A stretch of DNA of 10,429 nt from Chlamydiota bacterium. Its GTDB lineage: Bacteria > Auribacterota > JACPWU01. The notes beneath the pieces were generated by a model. It saw nothing but the letters and a program-made list of their open reading frames with translations. It was not told where the DNA came from and did no database searches. Location of the stretch: positions 1 to 10,429 of the forward strand of contig JACPWU010000014.1 of assembly GCA_016196885.1 (NCBI GenBank), in the 5' to 3' direction. Below are positions 1 through 10,429 of this stretch, piece after piece. How positions within the stretch are numbered: the first letter of the stretch is position 1; each line of letters begins with the position of its first letter. Both the position numbers and the translations under genes were made by a program.

Positions 1-3000
1 AAGGGCATTGAGCCGTCGTCTCGTCTCATGGTTTCTGTGGCGACGGTGAGGGCGGTCGAGCCTAATGTTTTGACGATGAAGTCTGCTCTTGTGGGGGTTC
101 CTCCAAAGGCGGTGTTCACAAGCCCTGTTCCGATGGTGGCTGTAACCACCCCCACTGTTCCCCCAATTTCTTCTGAGACGGTGTTGAACGCGACACTGGT
201 CAGAATGGGTTTTACAATTTGTTTCATGATGCTGAAGTTGTCCAGGCTAGGTAAGCCTGCCCCAGGGAATATTCCAGAGCCGATCCCTGCCGCTAGGCCA
301 CTGACCAATGCTCCTTTGAGGGCGTCCATGGGTTTTGCTCCCATGGCGATGGATGTTAAGAAGCTCGATGCAAATGCTGTGATCCCTGTTGCTAGGGCTG
401 TTGCAGCGGTGGCGCCTAGTGCGAAGGATGTGGTGAGCATGGTTGAGATCCCCGCTGTGACGGGGGCGAGGATGATTCCAAGTGCGATCGAGATCGCAGG
501 CATGAGAAATTTCTTGAGGAATCCCCCGCTGGATTTTACTTTTTCACTCGTCATCTCACGGTGTTCATCTATTAGGACATTGTTAGCGCCATATTCAGGA
601 TGAGCCTCATAGGTGCGACTGATTTTGGAGCCTTTGACTTTGGTGTGTTCGGTTTCTTTATAGTAGTTGAGCAGTCCCTTGTCGTCTACGGTTCCAGCTC
701 GGTCTATGGTTGTGGAATATTTCTTAATCCCCATTCCCTTTTCGGATGTTTCTTTGTGGAAGTTGACGGTGTTTCCGACTTTGTCGAACGTGACGTTTTC
801 CAATTTGTCGTGATAGGAGTAAATTGTTTTGTTGCCTGACTTTAGGATTTTGTTTTCTTCGGATGCGATGATTCGGTTCTTGGAGTCGTATTTCACTACG
901 CCATTGGCAACGTATGTTCCTTTACCCTTTACTGTTTTGCTTCCTTGTGATGTTTCAATCGTTGTGGGCTCAGTGTCGTGGATGGAATAGGTATACGTTC
1001 TATTTTTTGCGTCGTATTTGTAGCTTTCGGTTCTGACGACTAATCCTCTCCCATTTGTTTCGGTGATGTTTTCGATGCCGTAGCGGCCAAGTTTCATGTC
1101 GACGTGGTGACCGGTGACGAGGTTGTCTATTTTGATGGTGTTGCCTTTGAGGACAGCTTCGGCGAGTTTGTTTCCGTTTTCGTCCTGGACCCAGGCACGG
1201 TTACCGGAGAATTTAACGACTAGATTCTTCGCTTCGCTCAGAATGACAGCATTTCCTTGACTCTTGACACTTGCTACTTGACTCTTTATTTTCTCCAATT
1301 CTTGTTTAGCTATTTCAAGGGCTTTGAGTGCCGCTTGTTTTGCGGCCTGTGTTGTTGCTTGAAGAAGTGCGAGTTTGGCTTGAGCTACTTTGACTTGGGC
1401 TTGAGCTATTTTTCTCTCTCCTTCGGCTTTGGCTCTTTCGGCTGTGCTCTTGGCTTGTTGTATTTTAGTTTGCGCTTGTTGCAGAGCTTGCTGAGCGGTT
1501 CGCAGGGCTTGTTGGGCGAGTGATTTAGCTTGTGATGCTGTTTGTTGGGCTTTGGAGATTTGTATGGCTGCTTGTTGTTTTATTTTCTCTGCCTGCTTTA
1601 AGAGTTCTTGTGTGACCTGTTTCTTATAGATGCTCATCGCTTTGGAGGCTGCCTTTTGCGCATTTCGAGCCTGGTCTTGGGCACGTCTGGCTTGTTCTTC
1701 TGCTTCTTTTATTTGCGCTGCAAGTCTAGGGCCATATTTGAAGGACTGCTGGGTTCCGTAGGCATCAAGGGTAATGATGTAGTCAGGATGCGATATTTCC
1801 TCTTTTTCAAGTGCTCCGCTTGATGAGTAAGTATAGGTGTGATGTGCGATGTCTCCTTTTTCATCAGGGATTTCTTTCCAGGCAAGTTGTCCTTGGTGAT
1901 TATACCCTTGCGTGATATTGTTGGTTCCACTCTTACCTTCTGTGTGGTTGTTCCAACTTTCTTTTAGTTGAGTGGCTCTGCCTGCGTGATCAAAGTCTAG
2001 GACATGTGTAGTGGTCGTTTGGTTGAATGATTTTCCTTCTGCGTTGGTTCCCCATGTGTGGCTGGTCCATTTTGTCATTCTGTTTTGTGCATCGTATTGT
2101 ATGTTTGTTCGATGTTCTGTGTTAGATGTACGATGTCCGTTTGATAAGTGGTCTTCTGTGGTTTGTTCATAGGAACTGACTCTTCCTTGTTCGTCAAAGC
2201 TGGTTGAAGTTCTATCTGTGATGTGTTTTCCTAGACTGTCTTTCTCTATTCTTTTGAATGAGATCTTTCGCCCGAGCTCATCATATATGATGTTTGTTTC
2301 TGTTGATTGATACGATCCACCGTTTGATCTTGTTCCTTCTTCTGCAGTAGATGTGGTTTCTCCTAAGGCATTAAAGGTTTGTGAACGCGAGAATGAGTAT
2401 GAACCGCTGGCATTTGAGTGACCGGATTCATTAAACGATGTGATGTTTCCATAGTTGTCATAAGAGATGTTTGTCTTTTGAGATTTTATGACTTCACCTG
2501 TGGATAGTGTTGTTTTGCTTTTGTCTCCTGTTAGGCGCCCCGCTTCATCGTAGCTTTGGTTCAAGATTTCTTTTGTTTCTTGATGGATGAGGTTCAATCC
2601 CTCCGAGCGACTTTCTATGGCTCCTACCTGAAGACCTAGAATGGAGTATTGAAGACTGCTTACTTCTTTTAGATTAATCGATTCTTCATTTCCTACCTTT
2701 GTTTGTTGGAGCTCTTGATAAGCTTGTAATTGTCCGAGTTTGTTATAGATTGCATCGCTGAATTTAATTTCTGTTGTTTTGGTCGGATGCCCTTCTATTT
2801 CTTCTGTGATGATTTGTATGGAGCTTATGAGTTGGTTGAAGAGGTTTTCAAACACTATGCCCATGGGGCCCCTAGGCGTGTTTTGGCATTCATTCGCTTT
2901 TTGAGTCCATGACAAGTTCTCTTGAAGTTCTGCTAAATTTTGCACGGGAGTTTGAAGAATACGCTGCATTTGTACTTGGGCTTGCGCTTCTATGGGGATG

Positions 3001-3050
3001 GATAAAAAGATCTGTAGCGTTGCAAGAACACTGGATAGGATTTTAATCAT
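1..3050 (-). CDS. Secreted YD-repeat (Rhs/teneurin-type) protein. The 3' end is truncated by the window edge; codons occupy 3..3050, so at least 1016 aa.
   Basis: Manual reverse-strand translation from ATG at 3050..3048 gives an uninterrupted frame to position 3. A G-run Shine-Dalgarno-like GGGGGG lies a few nt upstream. The ORF is absent from the supplied track, presumably because it has no in-window stop. The N-terminus MIKILSSVLATLQIFLSIPIEAQAQ looks like a signal peptide. YD-type motifs recur: SYDEAGRL, SYDNYGNI, IYDELGRK, SFDEQGRV, QYDAQNRM, DFDHAGRA, then KYDAKNRT, KYDSKNRI, TFDKVGNT. An Ala/Gln/Lys-rich coiled-coil-like block is encoded at about 1260-1725. A Gly/Ala-rich hydrophobic block (AISIALGIILAPVTAGISTML...GLAAGIGSGIFPGAG) is encoded at about 3-520. 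The + strand ORFs in this interval are low-complexity shadows. Confidence 0.8.
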   Translation of the reverse strand, partial: MIKILSSVLATLQIFLSIPIEAQAQVQMQRILQTPVQNLAELQENLSWTQKANECQNTPRGPMGIVFENLFNQLISSIQIITEEIEGHPTKTTEIKFSDAIYNKLGQLQAYQELQQTKVGNEESINLKEVSSLQYSILGLQVGAIESRSEGLNLIHQETKEILNQSYDEAGRLTGDKSKTTLSTGEVIKSQKTNISYDNYGNITSFNESGHSNASGSYSFSRSQTFNALGETTSTAEEGTRSNGGSYQSTETNIIYDELGRKISFKRIEKDSLGKHITDRTSTSFDEQGRVSSYEQTTEDHLSNGHRTSNTEHRTNIQYDAQNRMTKWTSHTWGTNAEGKSFNQTTTTHVLDFDHAGRATQLKESWNNHTEGKSGTNNITQGYNHQGQLAWKEIPDEKGDIAHHTYTYSSSGALEKEEISHPDYIITLDAYGTQQSFKYGPRLAAQIKEAEEQARRAQDQARNAQKAASKAMSIYKKQVTQELLKQAEKIKQQAAIQISKAQQTASQAKSLAQQALRTAQQALQQAQTKIQQAKSTAERAKAEGERKIAQAQVKVAQAKLALLQATTQAAKQAALKALEIAKQELEKIKSQVASVKSQGNAVILSEAKNLVVKFSGNRAWVQDENGNKLAEAVLKGNTIKIDNLVTGHHVDMKLGRYGIENITETNGRGLVVRTESYKYDAKNRTYTYSIHDTEPTTIETSQGSKTVKGKGTYVANGVVKYDSKNRIIASEENKILKSGNKTIYSYHDKLENVTFDKVGNTVNFHKETSEKGMGIKKYSTTIDRAGTVDDKGLLNYYKETEHTKVKGSKISRTYEAHPEYGANNVLIDEHREMTSEKVKSSGGFLKKFLMPAISIALGIILAPVTAGISTMLTTSFALGATAATALATGITAFASSFLTSIAMGAKPMDALKGALVSGLAAGIGSGIFPGAGLPSLDNFSIMKQIVKPILTSVAFNTVSEEIGGTVGVVTATIGTGLVNTAFGGTPTRADFIVKTLGSTALTVATETMRRDDGSMP

Positions 3051-3113: not shown

Positions 3114-3374
3114 TTATGGGTTTTTTAGGACTTCATCGTGGTTGCCAACCAGTCTCAAATAAATCGTGTCCTTATCCATTTCAAAGCTCATTCGATAGTG
3201 GATGTCTACACGAGCTTCCCAAAGATCAGGGGTTCCTTGGATTTTTCTCGTGCGTAGGGACGGATGCATTGGATTTTCTGAGAGTTGCTTAACTTGACGT
3301 TTTGTTTTCTTTTGGATGTGCTGGGGGAGTTGAAGAAAAGATTTGTCAAAGCCTTTATAGTAGTGAACTTTCAC
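3114..3374 (-). CDS. RelE/ParE-superfamily type II toxin (86 aa)
   Basis: The size and motif layout are typical of RelE/ParE plasmid-stabilisation toxins: FxKxFxxLPxxIQKK...LSENPxHPSL..RKIQGTPDLWEARVDIHYRMSF....IYLRLVGNHDEV. A GTG start overlaps the upstream ORF stop by 4 nt (GTGA at 3374..3371), which is classic antitoxin-toxin coupling. Confidence 0.75.
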   Translation of the reverse strand: MKVHYYKGFDKSFLQLPQHIQKKTKRQVKQLSENPMHPSLRTRKIQGTPDLWEARVDIHYRMSFEMDKDTIYLRLVGNHDEVLKNP

Positions 3375-3619
3375 GATGCTTTCTTGATTGACTTGAAGAG
3401 GCCTTTGACTGTTCCATCACCTAGGATTTCACCTTTTTTCTTAGCTTCGTCTATCTCTTTCTCTTTTCTTTGCCATTCTTTTGTCCAGAAATAGGCTTGC
3501 TCTGGATCAATGATATGCTTCATTTTGAGGTAGCGGGCAAAGTCTAGGATTTCAGAAAATTCCTTGGGGTCCAGGCTTTTAACGGTGCTTAATAGTTCTA
3601 GTCTCATTGTGTTCGTCAT
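3371..3619 (-). CDS. Putative cognate antitoxin (82 aa)
   Basis: A small acidic/basic ORF lies immediately upstream of the RelE-like gene and overlaps it by 4 nt. The N-terminal segment KEFSEILDFARYLKMK resembles DUF2281-type antitoxin N-termini. The assignment rests mainly on position. Confidence 0.6.
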   Translation of the reverse strand: MTNTMRLELLSTVKSLDPKEFSEILDFARYLKMKHIIDPEQAYFWTKEWQRKEKEIDEAKKKGEILGDGTVKGLFKSIKKAS

Positions 3620-3625
3620 GGGTTT

Positions 3626-3654
3626 ATTCTATCATACTGTTTTTCCGTTCTCAA
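3626..3654 (-). promoter_or_regulatory. Candidate sigma70-type promoter for the toxin-antitoxin pair; the transcript may be leaderless
   Basis: Minus strand reads TTGAGA (3654..3649), a 17-nt spacer, then TGaTAGAAT (extended -10, hexamer 3631..3626). Six nt later comes the antitoxin ATG at 3619. The -35 overlaps the stop codon of the upstream recombinase. No Shine-Dalgarno is visible before the ATG. Confidence 0.3.
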
Positions 3655-4550
3655 ATTTTTTTTGGCTCCCCTTTTTCCCTTGGATGACATTTAGCATGAA
3701 CTTCTTTTAAGTCCATGATGGTGAGTTTTAAGTAGGGTTCCAAGCTTGAGAGTTTGGCGTGGCCTAGGAGCTCTTTGATGTAGTAGGGGTTTGCATGATT
3801 GCGGATCATGCCTGTGGCGCAGCTTCTTCTAAAAACATGCGGGGTGACGGGCCCTTCGATTCTTGCCTTGAACGCTGCTCTTCGGATGAGCATTCTTAAG
3901 CTTTCTCCTCCTAGTCTGGTTCCTCTGTGTGTTAAAAATAATGCTTTTTCTTGGGTGTTTCCTTGGGTGAGAATGGGTCTTATTCCTTTGAGGTAGTTTT
4001 CTAGCACTTGACACGCTGTTTTTCCAATGGGGACGACTCTGTCTTTTCCTCCTTTGCCCCTCATGATGCGGCAGTATCCTTCTTGGATGTCTATGTCCTT
4101 TAGGTCTAGGTTCAATAGCTCTTGTTTTCTTACCCCTGTGGTGTAAAGAAGTTCTAGGATGCTTCTATCTCGGTAGCCTAATAAGTGATGAGGATCCGGG
4201 GCCACTAAGATTTTTCGGATGATTTGATCAGGTAAGGTAAGACGGGGTAAGGTTTTGGGTTCTTTGATGTATTCTATTTTAGGCTCTAGTGCGATCAGTC
4301 CCTCATTCTTGAGACATTTAAAGTAGCCTTTTAGAATGGCGCTTACGATGTTGATGGTTCTTGCTTTGTAGGTTTTGAGCGTTTTCCGGTGCGCCTGGAT
4401 ATGGTGTTGTACGATTGCATCTATTCCAGAGATTCCCTGCGAGATCCCCCATTCAATGAACTTTGTGAGATGCCATAGATATGTTTCCTGCGTCCTAGGA
4501 CTGAAGTTTTTTCGATCCATCCACGCTCGGTACTTTTCTATGTGCCACAT
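3651..4550 (-). CDS. XerC/XerD-family tyrosine recombinase (299 aa), downstream member of a tandem pair
   Basis: N-terminal SAM-like core-binding region (FSPRTQETYLWHLTKFIEW). Catalytic signature is present: ELLYTTGVRKQEL (Arg I), GKGGKDRVVPIG (Lys), HVFRRSCAT (His-x-x-Arg), ELLGHAKLSSLEPYLK (His/Tyr nucleophile). The Xer-typical C-terminal tail is HAKCHPRE. GAGGGAAAG lies upstream of the ATG, and the gene starts 11 nt after the preceding recombinase's stop. Confidence 0.9.
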   Translation of the reverse strand: MWHIEKYRAWMDRKNFSPRTQETYLWHLTKFIEWGISQGISGIDAIVQHHIQAHRKTLKTYKARTINIVSAILKGYFKCLKNEGLIALEPKIEYIKEPKTLPRLTLPDQIIRKILVAPDPHHLLGYRDRSILELLYTTGVRKQELLNLDLKDIDIQEGYCRIMRGKGGKDRVVPIGKTACQVLENYLKGIRPILTQGNTQEKALFLTHRGTRLGGESLRMLIRRAAFKARIEGPVTPHVFRRSCATGMIRNHANPYYIKELLGHAKLSSLEPYLKLTIMDLKEVHAKCHPREKGEPKKI

Positions 4551-4561
4551 TTTCTTTCCCT

Positions 4562-5506
4562 CTATAGTTTTTTAATCTTTTGAACCTTTGATCTTTTCTT
4601 TTCCCTTGGATGTGTTCTTGTATGCTCTTTTTTTAAGTCTTTACCCGCTATTTTGAGGTATCGCTCCAGGCTCCCTAAGTCAGAGTGGCCTAAAAGCTCT
4701 TTGACGTAGTAAGGATGTGCGTTGTTGCGTAAGAGATGTGTCGCAAAGGTGCGTCTGAAAGTGTGCGCGGAGACAGGTTTTGCAAGGGCTAGCCTTTGGG
4801 CCATTTCTCTCACGATTTGATTGATTCGGCAATGAGATATTCTACGATGATGGCTTGAGATGAATAAGGCCGATTCGTCTTTTTCTTGAATGAGCTCTTG
4901 CCTTGCATTTTTGAGATAGTCTCTTAAAGGATGGGTCGCTTTCCTCCCCAACGGTTGTATTCTGTCTTTGGCTCCTTTGCCCCCTTGTATTCTTATAAAA
5001 CCTCCTTCGATGTCTATGTCTTCCATGTCCAGTCCCACCAGCTCACTTAAGCGCACTCCCGTGGAGTACATGAGCTCCATGATCGCTCGATTACGCAAAC
5101 CCAATATGCTTCTGTCCCATCCTTCAATCATTCGAGTGATTTCTTCTTCCGTTAAGATTTCCTTTACGATTCGATGCTTCACGAGACGGGGTATCAAAAG
5201 TGATTCAGATGGGTTGATGAGGAGCTGATGCGTTTTTTCTAAATGTTCTAGGAACCGTTTGATTCCTCTGAGGTAATGCTGCCGAGTCTCAGGTGAGTAT
5301 TCCTTTTCTTTTGAGCGTTCATCAAAGTCCTTTTGATATTCTTTTAAACGCTCCGGTGTGATCTGTCCCGGATGCTCAATCCCTTTCAAAATGAGCCAGT
5401 CCGTAAAATATCTTATGGGGCGTAGATAAGTTTTTAGCGTCGCTTGAGAGCGGTTTAGTTCTCTCAGGCGCTTCTCAAAGCCAAGCAGTGCCTCTTCAAA
5501 CTTCAT
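4562..5506 (-). CDS. XerC/XerD-family tyrosine recombinase (314 aa), upstream member of a tandem pair
   Basis: Same architecture as its neighbour: RSQATLKTYLRPIRYFTDWL, MELMYSTGVRLSEL, GGKGAKDRIQPLG, HTFRRTFATHLL, ELLGHSDLGSLERYLK, tail HTRTHPRE. It is clearly paralogous to the 299-aa neighbour; the C-terminal 40 aa are highly similar. AGGAG lies 9 nt upstream of the ATG. Confidence 0.9.
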   Translation of the reverse strand: MKFEEALLGFEKRLRELNRSQATLKTYLRPIRYFTDWLILKGIEHPGQITPERLKEYQKDFDERSKEKEYSPETRQHYLRGIKRFLEHLEKTHQLLINPSESLLIPRLVKHRIVKEILTEEEITRMIEGWDRSILGLRNRAIMELMYSTGVRLSELVGLDMEDIDIEGGFIRIQGGKGAKDRIQPLGRKATHPLRDYLKNARQELIQEKDESALFISSHHRRISHCRINQIVREMAQRLALAKPVSAHTFRRTFATHLLRNNAHPYYVKELLGHSDLGSLERYLKIAGKDLKKEHTRTHPREKKRSKVQKIKKL

Positions 5507-5545
5507 TTACAACGTCTCCTGTTTTTGGATATATATACGTACCCC

Positions 5546-5646
5546 TCACGAAGTCACGAAGTTGGCTTTTTTGGATGTAAGTTCTTCCGTCTCACTTAAT
5601 AAACTTCGTGAAAAATTTTCACGAAGTTTCACGAGGTTTCACGAAC
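5546..5646. repeat. Cluster of six TCACGAAG-type motifs including a 29-bp palindrome (candidate iterons, protein-binding sites or terminator)
   Basis: Tandem TCACGAAG-TCACGAAG at 5546-5561. An inverted copy ACTTCGTGA at 5603-5611. Three direct copies phased at 10 bp at 5617-5646: TTTCACGAAG, TTTCACGAGG, TTTCACGAAC. The palindrome AAACTTCGTGAAAA-A-TTTTCACGAAGTTT (5601-5629) spans the primase stop codon (5619-5621). The cluster lies between the replication gene and the recombinase pair. Confidence 0.65.
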
Positions 5647-8357
5647 TTTGTGCTCAAGGTTAAAATTCTATGAGTTTGTCCCGCAGGGACTATCCCTTCG
5701 GGGACTATAAGATCTTGTCCCGTGGGGACTATAAGATCTTGTCCCGTGGGGACTATAAGATCTTGTAAAATTTTGTAGCGGATTAAACTCCCCTGCCTTC
5801 CACCTAAAGCAATCACATATTCCAAATCCACCAGTTCCTTAAGATAAGTCCTAACCTGATAGTCTGTCCAAAGAAGCGTTTCCCTGATTTCACGTCTCGT
5901 GAAGATGATTTTTCCCGCGGGTCTTCCCTCTAATATTTTCGCCTCTTTCATTTTTTCAAGATGATGGAGCAGTGTCTCTCCTGGCTCGGAGAGTTCTTGT
6001 AGATTCTGTGATAGAAGTTTCTCGGCTAGACGATTGGCAAGTGCGATGTCACTCTTTTCAGTTTCAATCACTTTGATGATCTTTCCATTGTGTTCTATTT
6101 CTTTCACGGGCCGTTGGAACTGATGAATGAAGGTGATGGCCTTCACGACAGAAAGATATTTTGGATGGTCACGCCTCGCCATTAAGGCCTTCATCGACCA
6201 AGAGAGTTCTATCTCTTTTGGGATAACGACTTCTATCGCTTGAAGAAGTCTTTGAAAGTTTTGATGGGCTTTTACAATTTCACTTTGCTCTAGCTTCTTC
6301 AATAATCCCTCCAGGCTTTCACTTTCTCTTTGGAGAGCTAATATCTTTTCTGTTTGTTCTCTCGTTTCATCCATGCTGACTGTCAGAAAGCGACTTTTTG
6401 TCTCTTGATCTTGCTTGGGCTGTGTCGTGCTTTTCATCACCGCTGTGGGGCCTAGTACTTCATTGGTCATTGTGGTCATTTTTCCTGTGTGTGGGTCCCG
6501 GATGGTGGATTCTATGACGATTTTTTTGGAGCTGATGAGACTGCGTATGGGGTAGCTTGCATCTTCTGCCCCTGTTTCTTCTTCTATCGCCAAGACTTTA
6601 TGGACCATGCTTAAAGCGTCTTTATAGAAGAGGGCTTGCTTGGTGAGACTGGTGAGCTTGATTAAATCTTCTTCGGGACAGAGTGAAAGTACTTTATCCT
6701 GTAGGATGCTTTTCCCTGCTCCACTGCCAGATAAGATGAGTACGCTTAAGGGGTCGCTCATCTTGCGTGAACTCATAGATAAATAGAGAAGCAGTTTGTT
6801 CGTGTCTTCTCCGACAAGGCCCAGTGTGGAGAGGTCTTGCGTGATTCTTTCGGTGAGCTTGGGATCTTTCGCCAATCTCAATGCTTCTTTTTCTTCTTGT
6901 TCTGTTATTCTGTGGACCATCGACTGTCGACTATGGACTTTCTTTAAGTATTCCTGGCACTCGATAATCAGTTTTTCAATATCTTGCTCAATTAAATCCG
7001 CTTCTACGCTGTAGAAGAGCGCTATCTCTCGCGTAAGGTAGTTCCTCGCTCTGGAGTTGTAGAGGTCTATGGTGTCGATCGTGAAGCGGTGATTACTGAT
7101 CGCCTTGATGTTTGCTTTTAGGTGACGAGCACTATTTTGTTCTATTCCTCTGAGTTCGTAGGTGCGGCTTGTGTACTGGACACAGAAACCATCTTCGATG
7201 AGTCGTCTCTCATCCCTCCTCCATCGTCCGTCGTCCCTCTTGAGACTCACCAAGCGGATTTCTGGATATAAGATTTTCTCCATCTCTTCTTTTGTATGCT
7301 TCTTTAAAAAACTATTGGGGTCTTCACCGTCTGGTAGGTTAGCGATTCTTGTGGGGGTCCCTAATTCTTCAAGTTTTTCTTTTAATCTCAAAGCCCCACT
7401 CTTCCCCGCTTCATCCCCGTCCATCAATAAAATAATCTGTGAGGTGTTGTTTCGCTTAAAGCCCATGAGATGATCTGATGTGAGCCCATTCAATCCATAA
7501 AGGGGAATGGTGTTCTTGAACCCCGCTTGATAAAGTGAGAGTGAGTCGATGATGGATTCTGTGAGGATGATTTCGGGATAAAGTTTTAAGGAGGGACCAT
7601 TGAATAAGCCTCGATGAGGGCCTTTTAAGTATAGATGATTTGCCCCTTGCCCCTGGAGTCTCCTTCCATAGAAGGAGACAACCCGTCCCTCTTCATCTAA
7701 TAACGGAAACACAACGCATCCTTCAAAAAATTCTCGGTTGGCGCTAGTCAGAATGCCTAACCCCCTTAAAGCATCCCCATATTCCCCCTCTTCAGTCACT
7801 GTCTTAAAGATTGTCCCATTCGAGTATCCGATTCTAAAGATTTCGTAAAGCTTGGGGTCGATAAGACCCCTGATTTCTGATAAATAATTCCTCGCCCTTA
7901 AGTCATCATGGAACGTGTGTTGATAGTATTCACAAGTCTTGTCGAGCAACCTTTGATGTAGAACCGTTGGGAGTGTTTTTCTGACTTCTGCCCTAAAGGA
8001 CTGCTCCGCTGTCTTCTGACTTCTGTCTTCTGATTCTTTCAGCCTTCTAATCGCTTCTCCCGTCTCCACCCCTTCCTTCTTCATTACATAATCAATGACA
8101 CTTCCCCCAAGACCACACCCAAAACAGTTCCATAGCCAGATCCCACCCTCGACTTGCTTGACATTGAAGCTGGGGTTTGTTTCCTCATGCAGTGGACACA
8201 GGGCTACCCATCCATTCCCGCTTTTCTTGAAAGAGATTCCAAGGTTGGATAAATATTCAGTGAGGTCTCGTCGCTTTAGCTCTTCAAGATCATTGTGATG
8301 ATCTACAATCTTAATGATTGGATGTGTCCCGTTATGGCGTTTGGCAAGCCCCAACAT
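5619..8357 (-). CDS. Multidomain replication protein (912 aa): CHC2 zinc finger + DnaG-type primase/Toprim + P-loop NTPase (helicase-like) + C-terminal winged-helix
   Basis: Zinc finger CPLHEETNPSF...NCFGCGLGG (C54, H57, C78, C81). DnaG core motifs RNYLSEIRGL..FRIGYS and FEGCVVFPLLDEEGRVVSFYGRRL. Toprim motifs IILTESIIDS (E267) and LLMDGDEAG (D313/D315). Walker A LSGSGAGKS (543-550), Walker B-like VLAIEEE (588-594), then a KSTT / SRFLTV pattern resembling SF3/P4-alpha-type helicases. A wHTH-like segment REIRETLLWTDYQVRTYLKELVDLEYVIALGG lies near the C-terminus. The ATG at 8357 is preceded by AAGGGGGA. Confidence 0.85.
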   Translation of the reverse strand: MLGLAKRHNGTHPIIKIVDHHNDLEELKRRDLTEYLSNLGISFKKSGNGWVALCPLHEETNPSFNVKQVEGGIWLWNCFGCGLGGSVIDYVMKKEGVETGEAIRRLKESEDRSQKTAEQSFRAEVRKTLPTVLHQRLLDKTCEYYQHTFHDDLRARNYLSEIRGLIDPKLYEIFRIGYSNGTIFKTVTEEGEYGDALRGLGILTSANREFFEGCVVFPLLDEEGRVVSFYGRRLQGQGANHLYLKGPHRGLFNGPSLKLYPEIILTESIIDSLSLYQAGFKNTIPLYGLNGLTSDHLMGFKRNNTSQIILLMDGDEAGKSGALRLKEKLEELGTPTRIANLPDGEDPNSFLKKHTKEEMEKILYPEIRLVSLKRDDGRWRRDERRLIEDGFCVQYTSRTYELRGIEQNSARHLKANIKAISNHRFTIDTIDLYNSRARNYLTREIALFYSVEADLIEQDIEKLIIECQEYLKKVHSRQSMVHRITEQEEKEALRLAKDPKLTERITQDLSTLGLVGEDTNKLLLYLSMSSRKMSDPLSVLILSGSGAGKSILQDKVLSLCPEEDLIKLTSLTKQALFYKDALSMVHKVLAIEEETGAEDASYPIRSLISSKKIVIESTIRDPHTGKMTTMTNEVLGPTAVMKSTTQPKQDQETKSRFLTVSMDETREQTEKILALQRESESLEGLLKKLEQSEIVKAHQNFQRLLQAIEVVIPKEIELSWSMKALMARRDHPKYLSVVKAITFIHQFQRPVKEIEHNGKIIKVIETEKSDIALANRLAEKLLSQNLQELSEPGETLLHHLEKMKEAKILEGRPAGKIIFTRREIRETLLWTDYQVRTYLKELVDLEYVIALGGRQGSLIRYKILQDLIVPTGQDLIVPTGQDLIVPEGIVPAGQTHRILTLSTKFVKPRETS
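5678..5766. repeat. About 3.5 tandem copies of a 24-bp unit GGGGACTATAAGATCTTGTCCCGT (candidate iterons), embedded in frame in the 3' end of the replication gene
   Basis: Perfect copies at 5700-5723 and 5724-5747, a 19-bp partial copy at 5748-5766, and a degenerate copy at 5678-5699. Each unit carries an internal inverted repeat GGGAC...GTCCC around the palindrome AAGATCTT, which contains GATC. The repeats translate as QDLIVPTG repeats in the C-terminal tail of the 912-aa protein. Confidence 0.85.
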
Positions 8358-8643
8358 ATTGTCCCCCTTTTCTTAGTCTTAGTCCGTTTTGTGGTGAGTC
8401 TGTCTTTTCCCTGATGAGTGCGTACATCCTGTCCCTCAGTTCACTCATCGCTACCTTCAATTGATAAACATTGGCCTGGGCCTTGCCATGTTTATACTCC
8501 TCCTTCAACCCTTCAATGGATGTCCCTTCAAATTCAAACACCACCGTTCTCTTCCCATTGGCCTCCATCCAAAGGTTCACGAGTGTCATCCCCCTGGATA
8601 AAAGCCACGCTCCTTCATATAAATCATTCGTGAGTAGTCTCAT
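8332..8643 (-). CDS. DUF5659-like small protein (103 aa)
   Basis: The pattern TNDLYEGAWLLSRGMTLVNL....GKRTVVFEFEG....LKEEY...AQANVYQLKVAMSELRDRMY matches my recollection of the DUF5659 family, common in phages and mobile elements (t-DLylAayL..G..l......k..F.F......l...f....vd...f......lk). AAAGGA lies upstream of the ATG. The 3' end overlaps the primase start by 26 nt. Confidence 0.5.
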   Translation of the reverse strand: MRLLTNDLYEGAWLLSRGMTLVNLWMEANGKRTVVFEFEGTSIEGLKEEYKHGKAQANVYQLKVAMSELRDRMYALIREKTDSPQNGLRLRKGGQYVGACQTP

Positions 8644-8794
8644 CAGGGATTCCTTTCTTAAGCTCTTGGATTAATTCTTTAATCTGGTCCTGCGCTTTTC
8701 GACAATTTGACCCCGCCTGACTCACTGTCTCCAATACCGCCACGGGTAGCGTTAGTTTATTGGCAATCATGTGTAGGATTTCGGATTTGTTCAT
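8624..8794 (-). CDS. Small ORF (56 aa), first gene of the leftward operon; possible Cro/Xis-like or HU N-terminal-like protein
   Basis: Found by hand because it is below the track cutoff: ATG at 8794..8792 and TGA at 8626..8624. A strong Shine-Dalgarno GAAAGGAGCC lies directly upstream. Product: MNKSEILHMIANKLTLPVAVLETVSQAGSNCRKAQDQIKELIQELKKGIPDETTHE. It is divergent from the XRE gene and overlaps the next ORF's start by 20 nt. Confidence 0.45.
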   Translation of the reverse strand: MNKSEILHMIANKLTLPVAVLETVSQAGSNCRKAQDQIKELIQELKKGIPDETTHE

Positions 8795-8841: not shown

Positions 8842-8914
8842 GCTACATTTTTATGTTTATATGCTACATTTGGCGTAGCTATTCGTCAAGGGATTTCTAT
8901 ATGATTGTTATAAT
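8842..8914. promoter_or_regulatory. Divergent promoter/operator region between the XRE gene and the leftward replication operon
   Basis: Direct repeats GCTACATTT at 8842-8850 and 8863-8871, 21 bp apart. The second forms the inverted repeat GCTAC-ATTTGGC-GTAGC (8863-8879). Leftward promoter candidate: TTGACG (8889..8884), 17 nt, TAGCAT (8866..8861), with its -10 overlapped by the repeat. Rightward extended -10 TGTTATAAT at 8906-8914 lies 7 nt before the ATG at 8922. Confidence 0.4.
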
Positions 8915-8921
8915 TCTTTGC

Positions 8922-9335
8922 ATGAGACACATGACATCAACGATAAAAGATTTCGGAAAACGATTGGCAGAGATCCGTAAAGCTAGGGGACTTAGTCAGA
9001 GAGACCTCGCTCGGGAGTTGGGGATTTCCAATCGAATGGTTGCATACTATGAGGCTCAAACCCAATACGTTCCCTCCAATCTCTTAATCCCTTTGACAAA
9101 AATTCTAAAAATTCCTGTGGAAGAACTTTTAGGAGTTAAGAACTTTAAGGAATATATTAATCCCCAGGCAAAGAGCCTCTGGAAAAAATTAAGAAAGGCA
9201 GAGCTCCTTCCAAAAAAAGATCAAAAAGCCTTGTTGGATCATTTGGAAGCTCTTCTCCAAAGAGTCCCTCAATCTGAACCCTCCAAAATCCCGTCTCTTC
9301 ATAAAGCAGCTCAACAAAAAATAAAGGTTGGATAA
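8922..9335 (+). CDS. XRE-family helix-turn-helix transcriptional regulator (about 137 aa; the start could instead be 8931)
   Basis: Canonical HTH_3 motif IKDFGKRLAEIRKARGLSQRDLARELGISNRMVAYYEAQTQYVPSNLLIPLTKILKIPVEELLG. The track start at 8853 adds an implausible hydrophobic or aromatic leader (MFICYIWRSYSS...) that overlaps the promoter/operator region. I prefer ATG 8922 or 8931. Confidence 0.8.
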   Translation: MRHMTSTIKDFGKRLAEIRKARGLSQRDLARELGISNRMVAYYEAQTQYVPSNLLIPLTKILKIPVEELLGVKNFKEYINPQAKSLWKKLRKAELLPKKDQKALLDHLEALLQRVPQSEPSKIPSLHKAAQQKIKVG

Positions 9336-9577
9336 TAATAAGCAGGAATCACCCGTCCCAAAATAATCTCCGCAATATTTCCCCAATCACATCCGCTCGC
9401 CACTTTTTTTCTGCCCCCGCAAAATCCCCTCTTAGCCCAGGGTCTGTGATCCAGTCCATGCCATTGAGCTTTTAGCACCTGCCCTATCACTTGTAATGTT
9501 TTATAAAGTTTATAAGGTCTTATTTTATCGGGTGCGATGATGGCCTGGCCTAAAGCTCCGCAACGTCAAGCCCACAA

Positions 9578-9605
9578 GGGGCGCATAATGCGCATTATGC
9601 GACAT
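9578..9605. other. dif-like 28-bp site with XerC-type arms on both sides (C/C palindrome)
   Basis: GGGGCGCATAA-TGCGCA-TTATGCGACAT compared with E. coli dif GGTGCGCATAA-TGTATA-TTATGTTAAAT. The left arm matches 10 of 11, the spacer 3 of 6, and the right arm 8 of 11. The right arm is better described as an inverted copy of the left arm (CGCATAA / TTATGCG). Confidence 0.45.
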
Positions 9606-9626
9606 TGCGGGGCCAGGCCATGCTGC

Positions 9627-9654
9627 CTTTAACATAACTGAGGTTATGTTAAAC
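9627..9654. other. dif-like 28-bp site with XerD-type arms on both sides (D/D palindrome)
   Basis: CTTTAACATAA-CTGAGG-TTATGTTAAAC. The right arm matches the dif XerD half-site TTATGTTAAAT at 10 of 11 positions. The left arm is its inverted copy. The spacer is 6 bp. Confidence 0.45.
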
Positions 9655-10148
9655 TCTGACTGAGGTCAGAGTACGTCAGCTCTCCGATGTCGCATCGGAG
9701 ACATCGCACCCGGGCGAAGCCCTCTTTCCTCTTTTGCTCGACATAGCCCAAGACTCATCCCACGCCCGTGGCTCGCTTGATTTTCTCTGCTAAGAGATTT
9801 CGCTCGTTCAGTTTTAAATGCTCCGCTTTCAGTGACTCGCGACTCTAAAAAAATTCATTGGGCAACTCCAGGTAAAAAAAATTTTGGATTCGATGTGAAA
9901 GGGGTTTTTAGGAGTTAGATTTTTTCAAGATCATATTTTGTGATTTTAAATCAGATGTGTTTTTGAACAGGCGAGTCACTAACTTCACTTGTCCTAAAAA
10001 CTTTTCCGAGACAAAACTTTTAGCAAACCCTTTTGCTTTTCGTGCTTTTCCCCCGCGTGCACTCCGAGGCTTCTTTCGGAGTGTCGGCCACGTCGCTCTC
10101 TCGCTGCCACTGGCTTTGCCCTCTTCTCTCGCCTCCCCTAATCTCCTT

Positions 10149-10289
10149 TCCTTCCCCCTTCTTAATCCTATTCCTTACCACTCTCATTTTTGGGAAGTTC
10201 GAGAAGGGGCCCAAAAATGAGAGTGCACTAGGGGTGTAGAGGATAGGATGGGGGTAGGCCGATCGCAGTGAGGCCGCAAGGGGGAAGGA
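10149..10289. repeat. Long composite inverted repeat: pyrimidine-rich left arm, purine-rich right arm
   Basis: A perfect 16-bp inverted repeat, CACTCTCATTTTTGGG (10179-10194) / CCCAAAAATGAGAGTG (10210-10225), with a 15-nt loop. It is enclosed by a perfect 12-bp inverted repeat, TCCTTCCCCCTT (10149-10160) / AAGGGGGAAGGA (10278-10289). Additional imperfect pairing is possible, for example CCTATTCCTT (10167-10176) with AGAGGATAGG (10238-10247). Confidence 0.7.
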
Positions 10290-10429
10290 TCGAGGTAGGA
10301 CGGCCAGTTGCCCAGCCGCCCCCTCACAGATCCCGACGTGCGAAATTATCGCATCGGGCTCTTCAGAGATACTCGCCTACGCATTTAGGCCAGTTGTCAG
10401 AGCGTGTAGATGGCTTGTGGTTTTGTCCG
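10289..10429 (-). mobile_element. Probable 3'-terminal part of a group II intron (end of domain IV, domain V, domain VI). The intron body and reverse-transcriptase ORF would lie beyond the right edge.
   Basis: Minus strand 10361..10329 reads GAGCCCGATGCGATAATTTCGCACGTCGGGATC. It aligns with the classical domain V, for example yeast ai5-gamma GAGCCGUAUGCGAUGAAAGUCGCACGUACGGUUC. Shared features are the AGC triad, a 9-bp lower helix with compensatory changes, a 2-nt AC bulge on the 3' strand, and a 4-bp upper helix. It is followed by a domain VI-like hairpin, GAGGGGGCGGC (10325..10315) / GCCGTCCTACCTC (10304..10292), with a bulged A at 10296. That A lies 7 nt before a terminal ...GAT, so the intron would end in AY at about 10289. 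Caveats: the G of the triad faces A rather than U, and the loop is UAAUU rather than GNRA. Confidence 0.5.

Follow-up and report, generated by a model that had tools for sequence, protein, structure and literature searches.

A tandem recombinase pair on a small contig

What would two Xer-like tyrosine recombinase genes, lying one behind the other and directly after a replication gene, be doing on a small piece of bacterial DNA? The question is raised by the metagenome contig JACPWU010000014.1 (assembly GCA_016196885.1, Chlamydiota bacterium; Auribacterota, JACPWU01 in the GTDB lineage), which was analysed over its whole length of 10,429 bp and will be referred to as the window. An initial annotation, made from the letters of this DNA, had placed the pair in a replicon maintenance backbone similar to that of the chlamydial plasmid. 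We will refer to the two proteins as IntA and IntB. From the sequence comparisons presented here, it seems reasonably probable that they are the heteromeric integrase/excisionase pair of a small plasmid-like DnaG-MCM episome which exchanges the ends of toxin genes. The features on which this reading depends are the following:

4562..5506, minus strand: IntA, first tyrosine recombinase, 314 amino acids (aa); Pfam Phage_integrase (E 7e-39) and SAM-like N-domain
3651..4550, minus strand: IntB, second tyrosine recombinase, 299 aa; Pfam Phage_integrase (E 3e-35) and N-terminal SAM-like domain
5619..8357, minus strand: replicative primase-helicase, 912 aa, with DnaG Zn-ribbon and Toprim fused to MCM-like OB, AAA+ and winged-helix domains (Pfam and NCBIfam DnaG domains, AlphaFold2 model, Foldseek)
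3..3050, minus strand: 'big', a YD-repeat-like and polymorphic-toxin-like gene for a secreted product, truncated at the contig end; it has an extended -10 promoter of its own and encodes a signal peptide
717..784, minus strand: candidate attachment (att) core region, placed by homology only and encoding DKVGNTVNFHKETSEKGMGIKKY

In the order of minus-strand transcription, the window contains a 56-aa open reading frame (ORF), a 103-aa ORF, the primase gene, IntA, IntB, an antitoxin-like gene, a ParE/RelE-like toxin gene and 'big', while an XRE-family regulator (8853-9335) is divergent from all of them.

Recombinases and primase-helicase

ORFs, Pfam matches and alignment agree with the initial annotation that the window encodes two catalytically complete Xer-like paralogues, separated by 11 nucleotides (nt; 4551-4561), each with the full R-K-H-R-H-Y hexad and an HPRE tail. 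Both have the simple Xer-like architecture, with a SAM-like core-binding domain and without an arm-binding domain, as do XerC and XerD acting at dif (and at the plasmid sites cer and psi), with which they share the HPR(E/A) C-terminal motif. The degree of divergence is also alike, IntA and IntB being 37% and E. coli XerC and XerD 38% identical in one alignment, the nearest solved structures are XerD (1a0p) and the XerC-like 4a8e, and by analogy action as a heterotetramer is plausible for IntA/IntB. In contrast to XerC/XerD, these genes are in tandem and element-borne, their products score below the equivalog cut-offs (335 and 329.6 bits for NCBIfam TIGR02224 and TIGR02225, vs. 201.5 and 206.6 for IntA and 191 and 198.8 for IntB), their likely site is within a toxin gene instead of dif, and no link with FtsK is known. 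The A and B proteins also stand apart from the XerC/XerD clade: seven reference XerC/XerD proteins form their own split (99.5% bootstrap), which excludes all A, B and single element recombinases. On these sequence grounds, IntA and IntB are not the housekeeping XerC and XerD, an outcome that had been named as refuting the first interpretation.

Within the same tree, IntA groups with the first recombinase of the related loci L089, L090 and L006 (100% bootstrap) and IntB with their second one (99.5%), and a single B clade (78%) holds the second recombinases of the two-recombinase loci that were included. Pairwise A and B identities are correlated over 49 loci (r = 0.93, a value reached by 0 of 2000 permutations), and each position of the catalytic hexad is retained in at least 86% of the A and at least 88% of the B proteins. 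The B clade, the correlated identities and the retained residues together suggest an old pair, stably co-inherited and with both members active. Only two recombinase ORFs are present in the window, the next genes being the toxin-antitoxin pair, so that a RIT-type third recombinase is missing; nor is any TnpC-like third gene, as in Tn554, evident among the window ORFs.

Directly upstream of IntA in the direction of transcription lies the primase gene, as had been noted from the outset for a "primase/NTPase"; its product is a DnaG-type primase with a C-terminal NTPase. In the AlphaFold2 model (mean pLDDT 81.7), Foldseek matches the first ~370 residues to the zinc-binding and RNA-polymerase domains of Aquifex DnaG (2au3, E 2e-19) and residues ~385-865 to MCM subunits and archaeal MCM (8q67; E 1e-9 to 1e-7). 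Since its fold matches DnaG and MCM helicases, the modelled protein is a primase-helicase fusion able to support autonomous replication. No full-length relative was found in 50,697 phage records (N-terminal primase matches only), a scan of IMG/VR with the helicase half gave zero relatives, and the PHROG scan of the window proteins returned only primase, integrase and regulator matches, with no phage genes found. The view that this is not a simple prophage integrase locus is thus upheld, and by their sequence context IntA and IntB are not prophage integrases.

A conserved module among relatives

The family considered here, primase-dual-recombinase toxin-gene elements, is an operational one defined in this analysis. 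The helicase half of the primase retrieved 80 metagenome loci, 40 of them informative (at least 2.3 kb after the primase), and two recombinases (tyrosine recombinases A and B, YR-A and YR-B) are found in 39 of the 40; the distance between both genes in related loci is mostly -4 to +10 nt. The order of an oppositely oriented XRE gene, then (with the 103-aa ORF, p103) primase, YR-A and YR-B is shared by the window, L003/4, L006/7, L008, L089 and L170-172. Of 47 loci, 31 have a divergent XRE homologue upstream of the primase, and homologues of p103 occupy an equal position in L008, L089, L097, L105, L109, L117, L121, L124 and others. The nearest IntA relatives (37-54% identical) all follow a homologous primase and precede an IntB homologue, one of them in a Candidatus Aureabacteria bin. 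Broadly, metagenomes contain hundreds of members of the primase family, for the most part on contigs of 4-15 kb; the genome scan returned mostly chromosomal DnaG, with full-length relatives only in L009-L017 and L021. Distant elements in Proteobacteria, Actinobacteria and Acidobacteria carry a single recombinase belonging to a separate clade. A literature search on elements combining primase, recombinase and Rhs/CdiA tips found no description of them.

Two observations extend this picture. L017 and L021 (Bacteroidota) have distant primase relatives followed by two recombinases outside the A and B clades, which suggests by sequence an independent origin of that pair; L021 also contains a 117-bp direct repeat, with copies ~10.7 kb apart. 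The integrated two-recombinase element L170 encodes a TrwC-type relaxase (4772-7735), and because of it at least some members are, as judged from gene content, mobilisable; no relaxase was seen in the window.

Circular and integrated relatives

The claim that the block is the backbone of a mobile replicon is borne out by its relatives, which assemble as circles of 8-11 kb, one being the plasmid of a cultured isolate. Terminal overlaps amount to 123 bp in L093, 91 bp in L010 and 19 bp in L089; L093 is a two-recombinase circle of 7.9 kb, whose first ORF after YR-B begins 'GEVRIGLFVGNNPINNIDPLGL'. The cultured case is plasmid unnamed1 of Lonsdalea populi N-5-1 (NZ_CP072857.1, L173; circular, 11,289 bp), for which no describing paper was found. 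As in the window, a divergent XRE gene is followed by a primase of the DnaG type (36% identity, covering 91% of the protein of the window), a gene annotated 'xerC', an antitoxin and a RelE/ParE toxin (DinJ-RelE in the plasmid), and toxin tips with their immunity genes. Unlike the window, this plasmid encodes a single recombinase, its Rhs tips lack promoters and start from the DPxGL motif, each with an immunity gene, instead of forming a complete secreted gene, and its host is a gammaproteobacterium. Of the two primase modules in the record, one is intact and the other truncated; there are two of the promoterless Rhs tips, an HNH and a non-specific endonuclease, accompanied by immunity genes and SymE/HTH pairs. 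As a whole, the record looks by sequence like a fused dimer of two related elements.

In some 15 two-recombinase loci, the Rhs core-end motif PxxxxDPxGL is found 150-1400 nt past YR-B. Integrated copies, bounded by direct repeats of 56-134 bp, lie within toxin genes of the Rhs, CdiA or giant YD-like kinds, where the conserved core gives way to the variable tip:

L121: 134-bp flanking direct repeat; Rhs target, ends at the core-end motif
L097: 113-bp flanking direct repeat; other toxin family
L150: 100-bp flanking direct repeat; Rhs target, ends at the core-end motif
L171: 77-bp flanking direct repeat; other toxin family
L142: 60-bp flanking direct repeat; Rhs target, ends at the core-end motif
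L105: 56-bp flanking direct repeat; Rhs target, ends at the core-end motif

Because the integrated relatives are bounded by direct repeats inside toxin genes, a role in integration and excision is proposed for the recombinases; for the same reason, multimer resolution, initially put forward as their main role, has been set aside. In L171, a 4874-aa gene contains the left repeat, and the C-terminal part of this gene has a homologue in the 690-aa ORF that follows YR-B. In L009 (Limnobaculum eriocheiris, NZ_JAJNAG010000009.1, 2716-16526), the VENN codons of cdiA (GTGGAGAATAA) are the exact point at which a 6,893-bp unit has entered, in two tandem copies; the unit comprises a CdiA-CT tip (CdiA_C), a small ORF, a helix-turn-helix (HTH) gene, the primase and one recombinase, and the original EC869-like tip has been pushed downstream. 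The L170 element is preceded by a 4339-aa RHS/YD gene; only a 14-bp match, at chance level, was found as a nucleotide att repeat, and the Rhs core-end motif is recognisable at the protein level on both sides, with a stub ahead of the motif and a reprolysin-like tip, similar to the stub of L089 described below.

A model of C-terminal displacement in Rhs proteins, and orphan CdiA/Rhs tip cassettes, have been described (Jackson et al., 2009, PMC2935791; Poole et al., 2011, PMC3150448). As read from their sequences, the relatives show the outcome which the displacement model predicts: the resident gene has gained a new tip together with a fragment of core, its former tip lies displaced downstream, and the incoming tip has a carrier in circular form. 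The difference is that the circle is here a self-replicating element with dedicated recombinase(s); furthermore, the window's own toxin-like gene is not recognisable as Rhs or CdiA.

The 'big' gene and a candidate att site

In the window and in L006, L007 and L089, the recombinase pair is followed by homologous 'big' genes, and in this subfamily the gene after IntB is complete, with extended -10 promoter and signal peptide, not a promoterless tip. A 7589-aa protein, whose gene is on a chromosomal contig in the bin of L089, matches the 'big' protein with 40% identity in its residues 5978-6834. This contig (CAZXEQ010000008.1 of GCA_964640155.1, L178) has two consecutive giant genes (>3658 aa and 7589 aa) homologous to 'big', with no Pfam matches on record, followed by a lipoprotein gene related to that of L089; by sequence, they would represent a family of giant secreted proteins devoid of Pfam annotation. 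Between its YD-like repeats, the 'big' protein also has a long Q/A/K-rich, coiled-coil-like stretch, and a Gly/Ala-rich hydrophobic region is found near the contig end.

The closest relative, L089, has a primase 72% identical to that of the window and shares with it ~1 kb of conserved non-coding DNA. Its 'big' ORF remains open through both contig ends, and these ends lie in a 68-bp segment, R, which is 100% identical between both of them and a chromosomal gene of the same bin (P0244/L180, encoding a 1493-aa paralogue), with abrupt divergence on either side. Left of R in L089 lies a short stub of unrelated sequence, made of a promoter, a signal peptide and ~70 aa; to the right, the genes of L089 and L180 go on as ~70%-identical C-terminal parts. 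R holds an imperfect 10-6-10 inverted repeat. As the L180 gene is uninterrupted, L089 would most simply be a free circle, with an attP equal to the chromosomal attB. In the window, the toxin-like gene that follows IntB and the toxin-antitoxin pair contains the homologue of R at 717-784, and the contig stops before any second copy. A search for homologues with the C-terminal part of 'big' gave zero matches, which is why no partner of the candidate site was found. The upstream edge of this region overlaps a 27-bp imperfect tandem repeat (752-810, 2.3 copies), encoding NVTFDKVG / NTVNFHKE.

Iterons, repeats and a palindrome between primase and IntA

The short region between the primase and IntA contains three repeated features:

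5700..5771, minus strand: 24-bp tandem repeat, 2.8 copies, 100% matches, inside a lineage-specific 3' extension of the primase ORF
5601..5645, minus strand: iterons clustered at the stop codon of the primase gene, with three (T/C)TCGTGAAA(C) units as direct repeats spaced by 10 bp
5529..5560, minus strand: two promoter-proximal iterons (5546-5552, 5554-5560) and then a TATATATAT box (5529-5537), upstream of IntA

The ~10-bp iterons are conserved among relatives (5619-5645, 5605-5611 and 5546-5560 in the window). All ten loci compared (the window and nine relatives) share three to five direct iterons, a spacer of 40-80 bp, and then a (GC)ATATATA box that has one or two more iterons in its -35 position and precedes the start of recombinase A. 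The window thus has the layout of the family, with an iteron cluster after the primase and an iteron plus TATATATA box before YR-A (5529-5645). The iteron sequence differs by lineage: TTCGTGA in the window, CCTTGCGA in L089 and ACTTGGAGGG in L099, L105 and L121. A co-variation of iterons and primase winged helix was considered and discarded, the helix being almost identical in the window (TTCGTGA) and L089 (CCTTGCGA). From its layout, the iteron region (in particular the cluster at the 3' end of the primase gene) is probably the replication origin, and 5529-5560 probably serves the recombinase operon as a regulated promoter.

Together with a copy in inverted orientation, the last iteron of the cluster makes up a perfect 11-7-11 palindrome (5601-5629; z = -4.4 when folded), whose centre is AT-rich. 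Palindromes with co-varying arms are also present in L006, L089 and L090, i.e., in the subfamily of the window; other subfamilies have direct iterons only, with no inverted copy, or no spacer between primase and YR-A (L170, L093). The palindrome had been proposed as the site of recombination and is not supported as such, as it belongs to the iteron-plus-promoter architecture and its sequence is unrelated to the att candidate.

The 24-bp repeats, taken at first for an origin feature, do exist; as part of an origin they did not hold up, since they are lineage-specific and inside an ORF extension. Each unit encodes DLIVPTGQ and contains GGGAC...GTCCC inverted 5-mers. The extension is of 45 codons (5619-5771), reads through the 24-bp repeats and the iterons, has no counterpart in L006, L089 or L090, and ends with the TGA of the third TTCGTGA iteron as its stop codon; this tail may be translated or may really be non-coding origin DNA.

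Proposed mechanism and competing explanations

In the mechanism that we propose, the element would replicate by means of its own DnaG-MCM primase-helicase, from an origin probably located in the iteron cluster at the 3' end of that gene; a divergent XRE repressor would control it, the toxin-antitoxin pair would stabilise it, and a secreted polymorphic-toxin-like gene would be its cargo. IntA and IntB may act jointly, probably as an A2B2 tetramer on an asymmetric core, recombining the att site in the toxin gene (at the junction of conserved and variable C-terminal parts) with the identical sequence in a chromosomal homologue. Integration would thereby give the chromosomal N-terminal part the tip and immunity genes of the element; in the subfamily of the window, the displaced old tip would end up joined to the stub of promoter and signal peptide that the element itself contributes. 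Two att copies could also recombine with each other, thereby excising the element and resolving multimers. That the crossover is made by the recombinases and not by RecA, that the two act as heteromers, and that att is at 717-784 is what we infer from sequence.

A broader proposal is more tentative, and we would give it slightly less than even credence: the whole family may consist of self-replicating episomes that insert site-specifically at the core/tip junctions of polymorphic toxins by means of a co-evolving Xer-like pair (one recombinase in Proteobacteria). The sites would be DPxGL in Rhs, VENN in CdiA and the corresponding junctions of giant unannotated YD-like proteins. Under this proposal, the episomes would be the long-hypothesised circular intermediate with an integrase behind the C-terminal displacement of toxin tips, and in the window subfamily the element would supply the promoter and signal-peptide stub that keep the displaced tip expressed.

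Several points weigh against the exchange of toxin-gene ends by IntA and IntB. Flanking direct repeats are also expected from a RecA-dependent single crossover, as was proposed for Rhs tips (Jackson et al., 2009, PMC2935791). The recombinase trees were built by neighbour-joining only, with 200 bootstraps, and the A proteins are not monophyletic in them. The Pfam scan of 'big' gave no significant match, its toxin role being putative; L089 and L180 are linked by binning only, and the 19-bp terminal overlap of L089 is not a standard assembler overlap, which leaves its circularity partly inferred. In the window equivalent of R, identity to L180 is only ~84% in the 3' part (51 bp aligned) and there is little likeness further 5'; no clear inverted-repeat core is seen. 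As for the window itself, the contig inspection suggested at the start disclosed neither circularity nor flanking direct repeats: its ends have no terminal overlap, and no long direct repeat or junction was seen. Its state (episomal or integrated) and its candidate att site are, at the level of sequence, unproven.

The most serious rival is that the element is purely a plasmid, in which IntA and IntB resolve multimers in the manner of Xer at 5601-5629 and 5546-5560, relatives having integrated by homologous recombination. We regard this as unlikely, although the perfect 11-7-11 palindrome with its AT-rich centre adjoins the recombinase genes and is kept with co-varying arms in three relatives, circular relatives and a true plasmid exist, toxin-antitoxin modules suit plasmid maintenance, and flanking repeats alone fit RecA and site-specific crossover equally. 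Against it, other subfamilies with the pair have only direct iterons or lack the spacer altogether, and direct repeats spaced by 10 bp with a further copy at the -35 position of the TATATATA box resemble the layout of a replication initiator or operator; besides, the att position just downstream of YR-B is constant across Rhs, CdiA and other toxin families, and the ends of L089 fall in R, not in the palindrome. The housekeeping explanation, i.e., XerC and XerD of the host adjacent by chance, is of negligible probability: the best NCBIfam matches are indeed the XerC and XerD models, and XerD and XerA the nearest solved structures, but scores of ~200 bits compare with cut-offs of 330-371, the reference proteins form their own 99.5% split, and the genes belong to a mobile module that occurs in several phyla.

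Two further readings appear improbable. The pair might be a cassette shuffler or invertase that reorders the alternative toxin tips of one locus and thereby gives phase or antigenic-type variation, as could be imagined from the arrays of two or more tips downstream of YR-B in L166/L168 and the Lonsdalea plasmid, and from Bacteroidales rAID, where a tyrosine recombinase is linked to arrays of orphan immunity genes (PMC12247911); yet every repeat found is direct and none inverted, the recombinases always accompany a replication module, and whole elements are seen as circles. Equally hard to credit is a P4-like phage satellite or prophage remnant whose integrases are unrelated to the toxin gene. 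The logic of its modules is alike (recombinase, primase-helicase, CI-like repressor, plasmid or integrated state), and PHROG integrase and primase families are matched; however, no capsid, packaging or helper-manipulation genes were found, the phage records and IMG/VR have no full-length primase relative, and the targets are toxin genes and not tRNA genes, of which a search of the window found none, leaving it without a tRNA att site.

Comparison with known systems

The likeness to the small Chlamydia plasmid, suggested at first, did not withstand comparison. Both have two tyrosine recombinase homologues, a replication helicase and short tandem repeats, on what in Chlamydia is a small circular replicon. 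Nonetheless, pGP7 and pGP8 are only 16-18% identical to IntA/IntB and are the most distant sequences in the trimmed alignment, their saturated distances being the reason for leaving them out of the bootstrap tree. In pCTA, the genes of pGP7 (25-942, minus strand) and pGP8 (6492-7484, plus strand) converge across the record origin, whereas those of IntA and IntB are tandem and co-directional. Four of the six catalytic residues are missing from pGP7 in the alignment and all are present in IntA/IntB. The chlamydial helicase is annotated as a replicative DNA helicase, vs. a DnaG-MCM fusion in the window, and the 22-bp repeats of Chlamydia differ from the 24-bp ones, which are lineage-specific and inside an ORF.

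The satellite P4 combines an integrase, the alpha primase-helicase and immunity, and exists as plasmid or integrated; alpha has a C-terminal winged helix, and iterons are found near its gene. By analogy, the window may represent another small element that replicates or integrates, with a primase-helicase ending in a winged helix and with iterons nearby. The DnaG-MCM fusion would differ in make-up from P4 alpha; furthermore, a pair of simple recombinases takes the place of one arm-binding integrase, a toxin gene is the target instead of a tRNA gene, and no helper-phage genes are present.

Several tyrosine recombinases side by side, with presumed joint action, also occur as TnpA/TnpB in Tn554, in RIT trios, in BIM pairs and as IntA/IntB of SE elements, and a recombinase tied to exchangeable toxin or immunity cassettes is known from integrons and Bacteroidales rAID (PMC12247911). 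As judged from gene content, the window lacks the third recombinase of RIT, a TnpC and a tfp gene; unlike all of these systems (Tn554, RIT, BIM, SE, integrons and rAID), a replication module is always present in the family of the window.

New C-terminal toxin/immunity cassettes of Rhs, CdiA and other proteins have so far been explained mainly by homologous recombination with orphan cassettes. If the proposed reading is true, the family would be a carrier for tip exchange: a circle that replicates, is mobilisable in some cases, encodes its own recombinase(s) and has att at the conserved core/tip boundary. Tip exchange would then become experimentally testable, since cultured Lonsdalea has the plasmid form and Limnobaculum the integrated tandem form. 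The family would also be a new natural example of paired simple tyrosine recombinases that act as heteromers, on a target within protein-coding sequence, and would offer a reason why such elements and toxin genes fragment metagenome assemblies.

Other features of the window

The remaining genes and conserved regions are the following:

8624..8794, minus strand: small ORF, 56 aa, first gene of the leftward operon (ORF list; no family match in Pfam, NCBIfam or PHROG)
8332..8643, minus strand: conserved small ORF p103, 103 aa, which overlaps the start of the primase gene (Pfam, NCBIfam and PHROG gave no match)
8853..9335, plus strand: divergent, repressor-like XRE-family HTH regulator (HTH_3, E 5e-9; RstR-like)
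3371..3619, minus strand: antitoxin-like gene, 82 aa (weak DUF2281 match; 4-nt overlap with the toxin gene)
3114..3374, minus strand: ParE/RelE-superfamily toxin-like gene, 86 aa (ParE_like, E 5e-5; Gp49 weak)
9424..10288, minus strand: non-coding DNA conserved in the element, with 71-77% nt identity to L089 and two stable hairpins

The presence of a toxin-antitoxin pair and an XRE gene, already reported in the first annotation, was confirmed, with a ParE_like score of 23.5 bits for the toxin, below the Pfam cut-off of 24.4. A promoter-like site with an extended -10 (3654-3626) is available for the antitoxin-like/toxin-like pair, and pairs at the equivalent place are found in L089 (BrnT/CopG) and in the Lonsdalea plasmid (DinJ/RelE).

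One hairpin of the non-coding region (10179-10225; z = -5.6 as DNA) has a stem of 16 bp, in which L089 shows two compensatory changes, and a conserved polypurine run (GAAGAAGGGGGAAGGAAAGGAGA) comes next; the other hairpin is at ~9530-9625 (z = -4.8 as DNA). They could be priming, transfer or regulatory sites. In the Rfam scan, the core of the element had no match, and the sole match of the window was the end of a group II intron at the contig edge: Intron_gpII (domains V/VI) at 10289-10363, minus strand, running on to the contig end at 10429 (39.4 bits vs. a gathering score of 40, E 5e-5). The segment from 10289 to the contig end is missing in L089, whose homology restarts exactly at 10288, and a group II intron thus appears, by sequence, to have inserted in the element; this is probably why the contig ends at 10429. 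At the other side of the window, the AT skew is -0.37 to -0.48 across ~500-3000, the coding strand of 'big' being rich in A.

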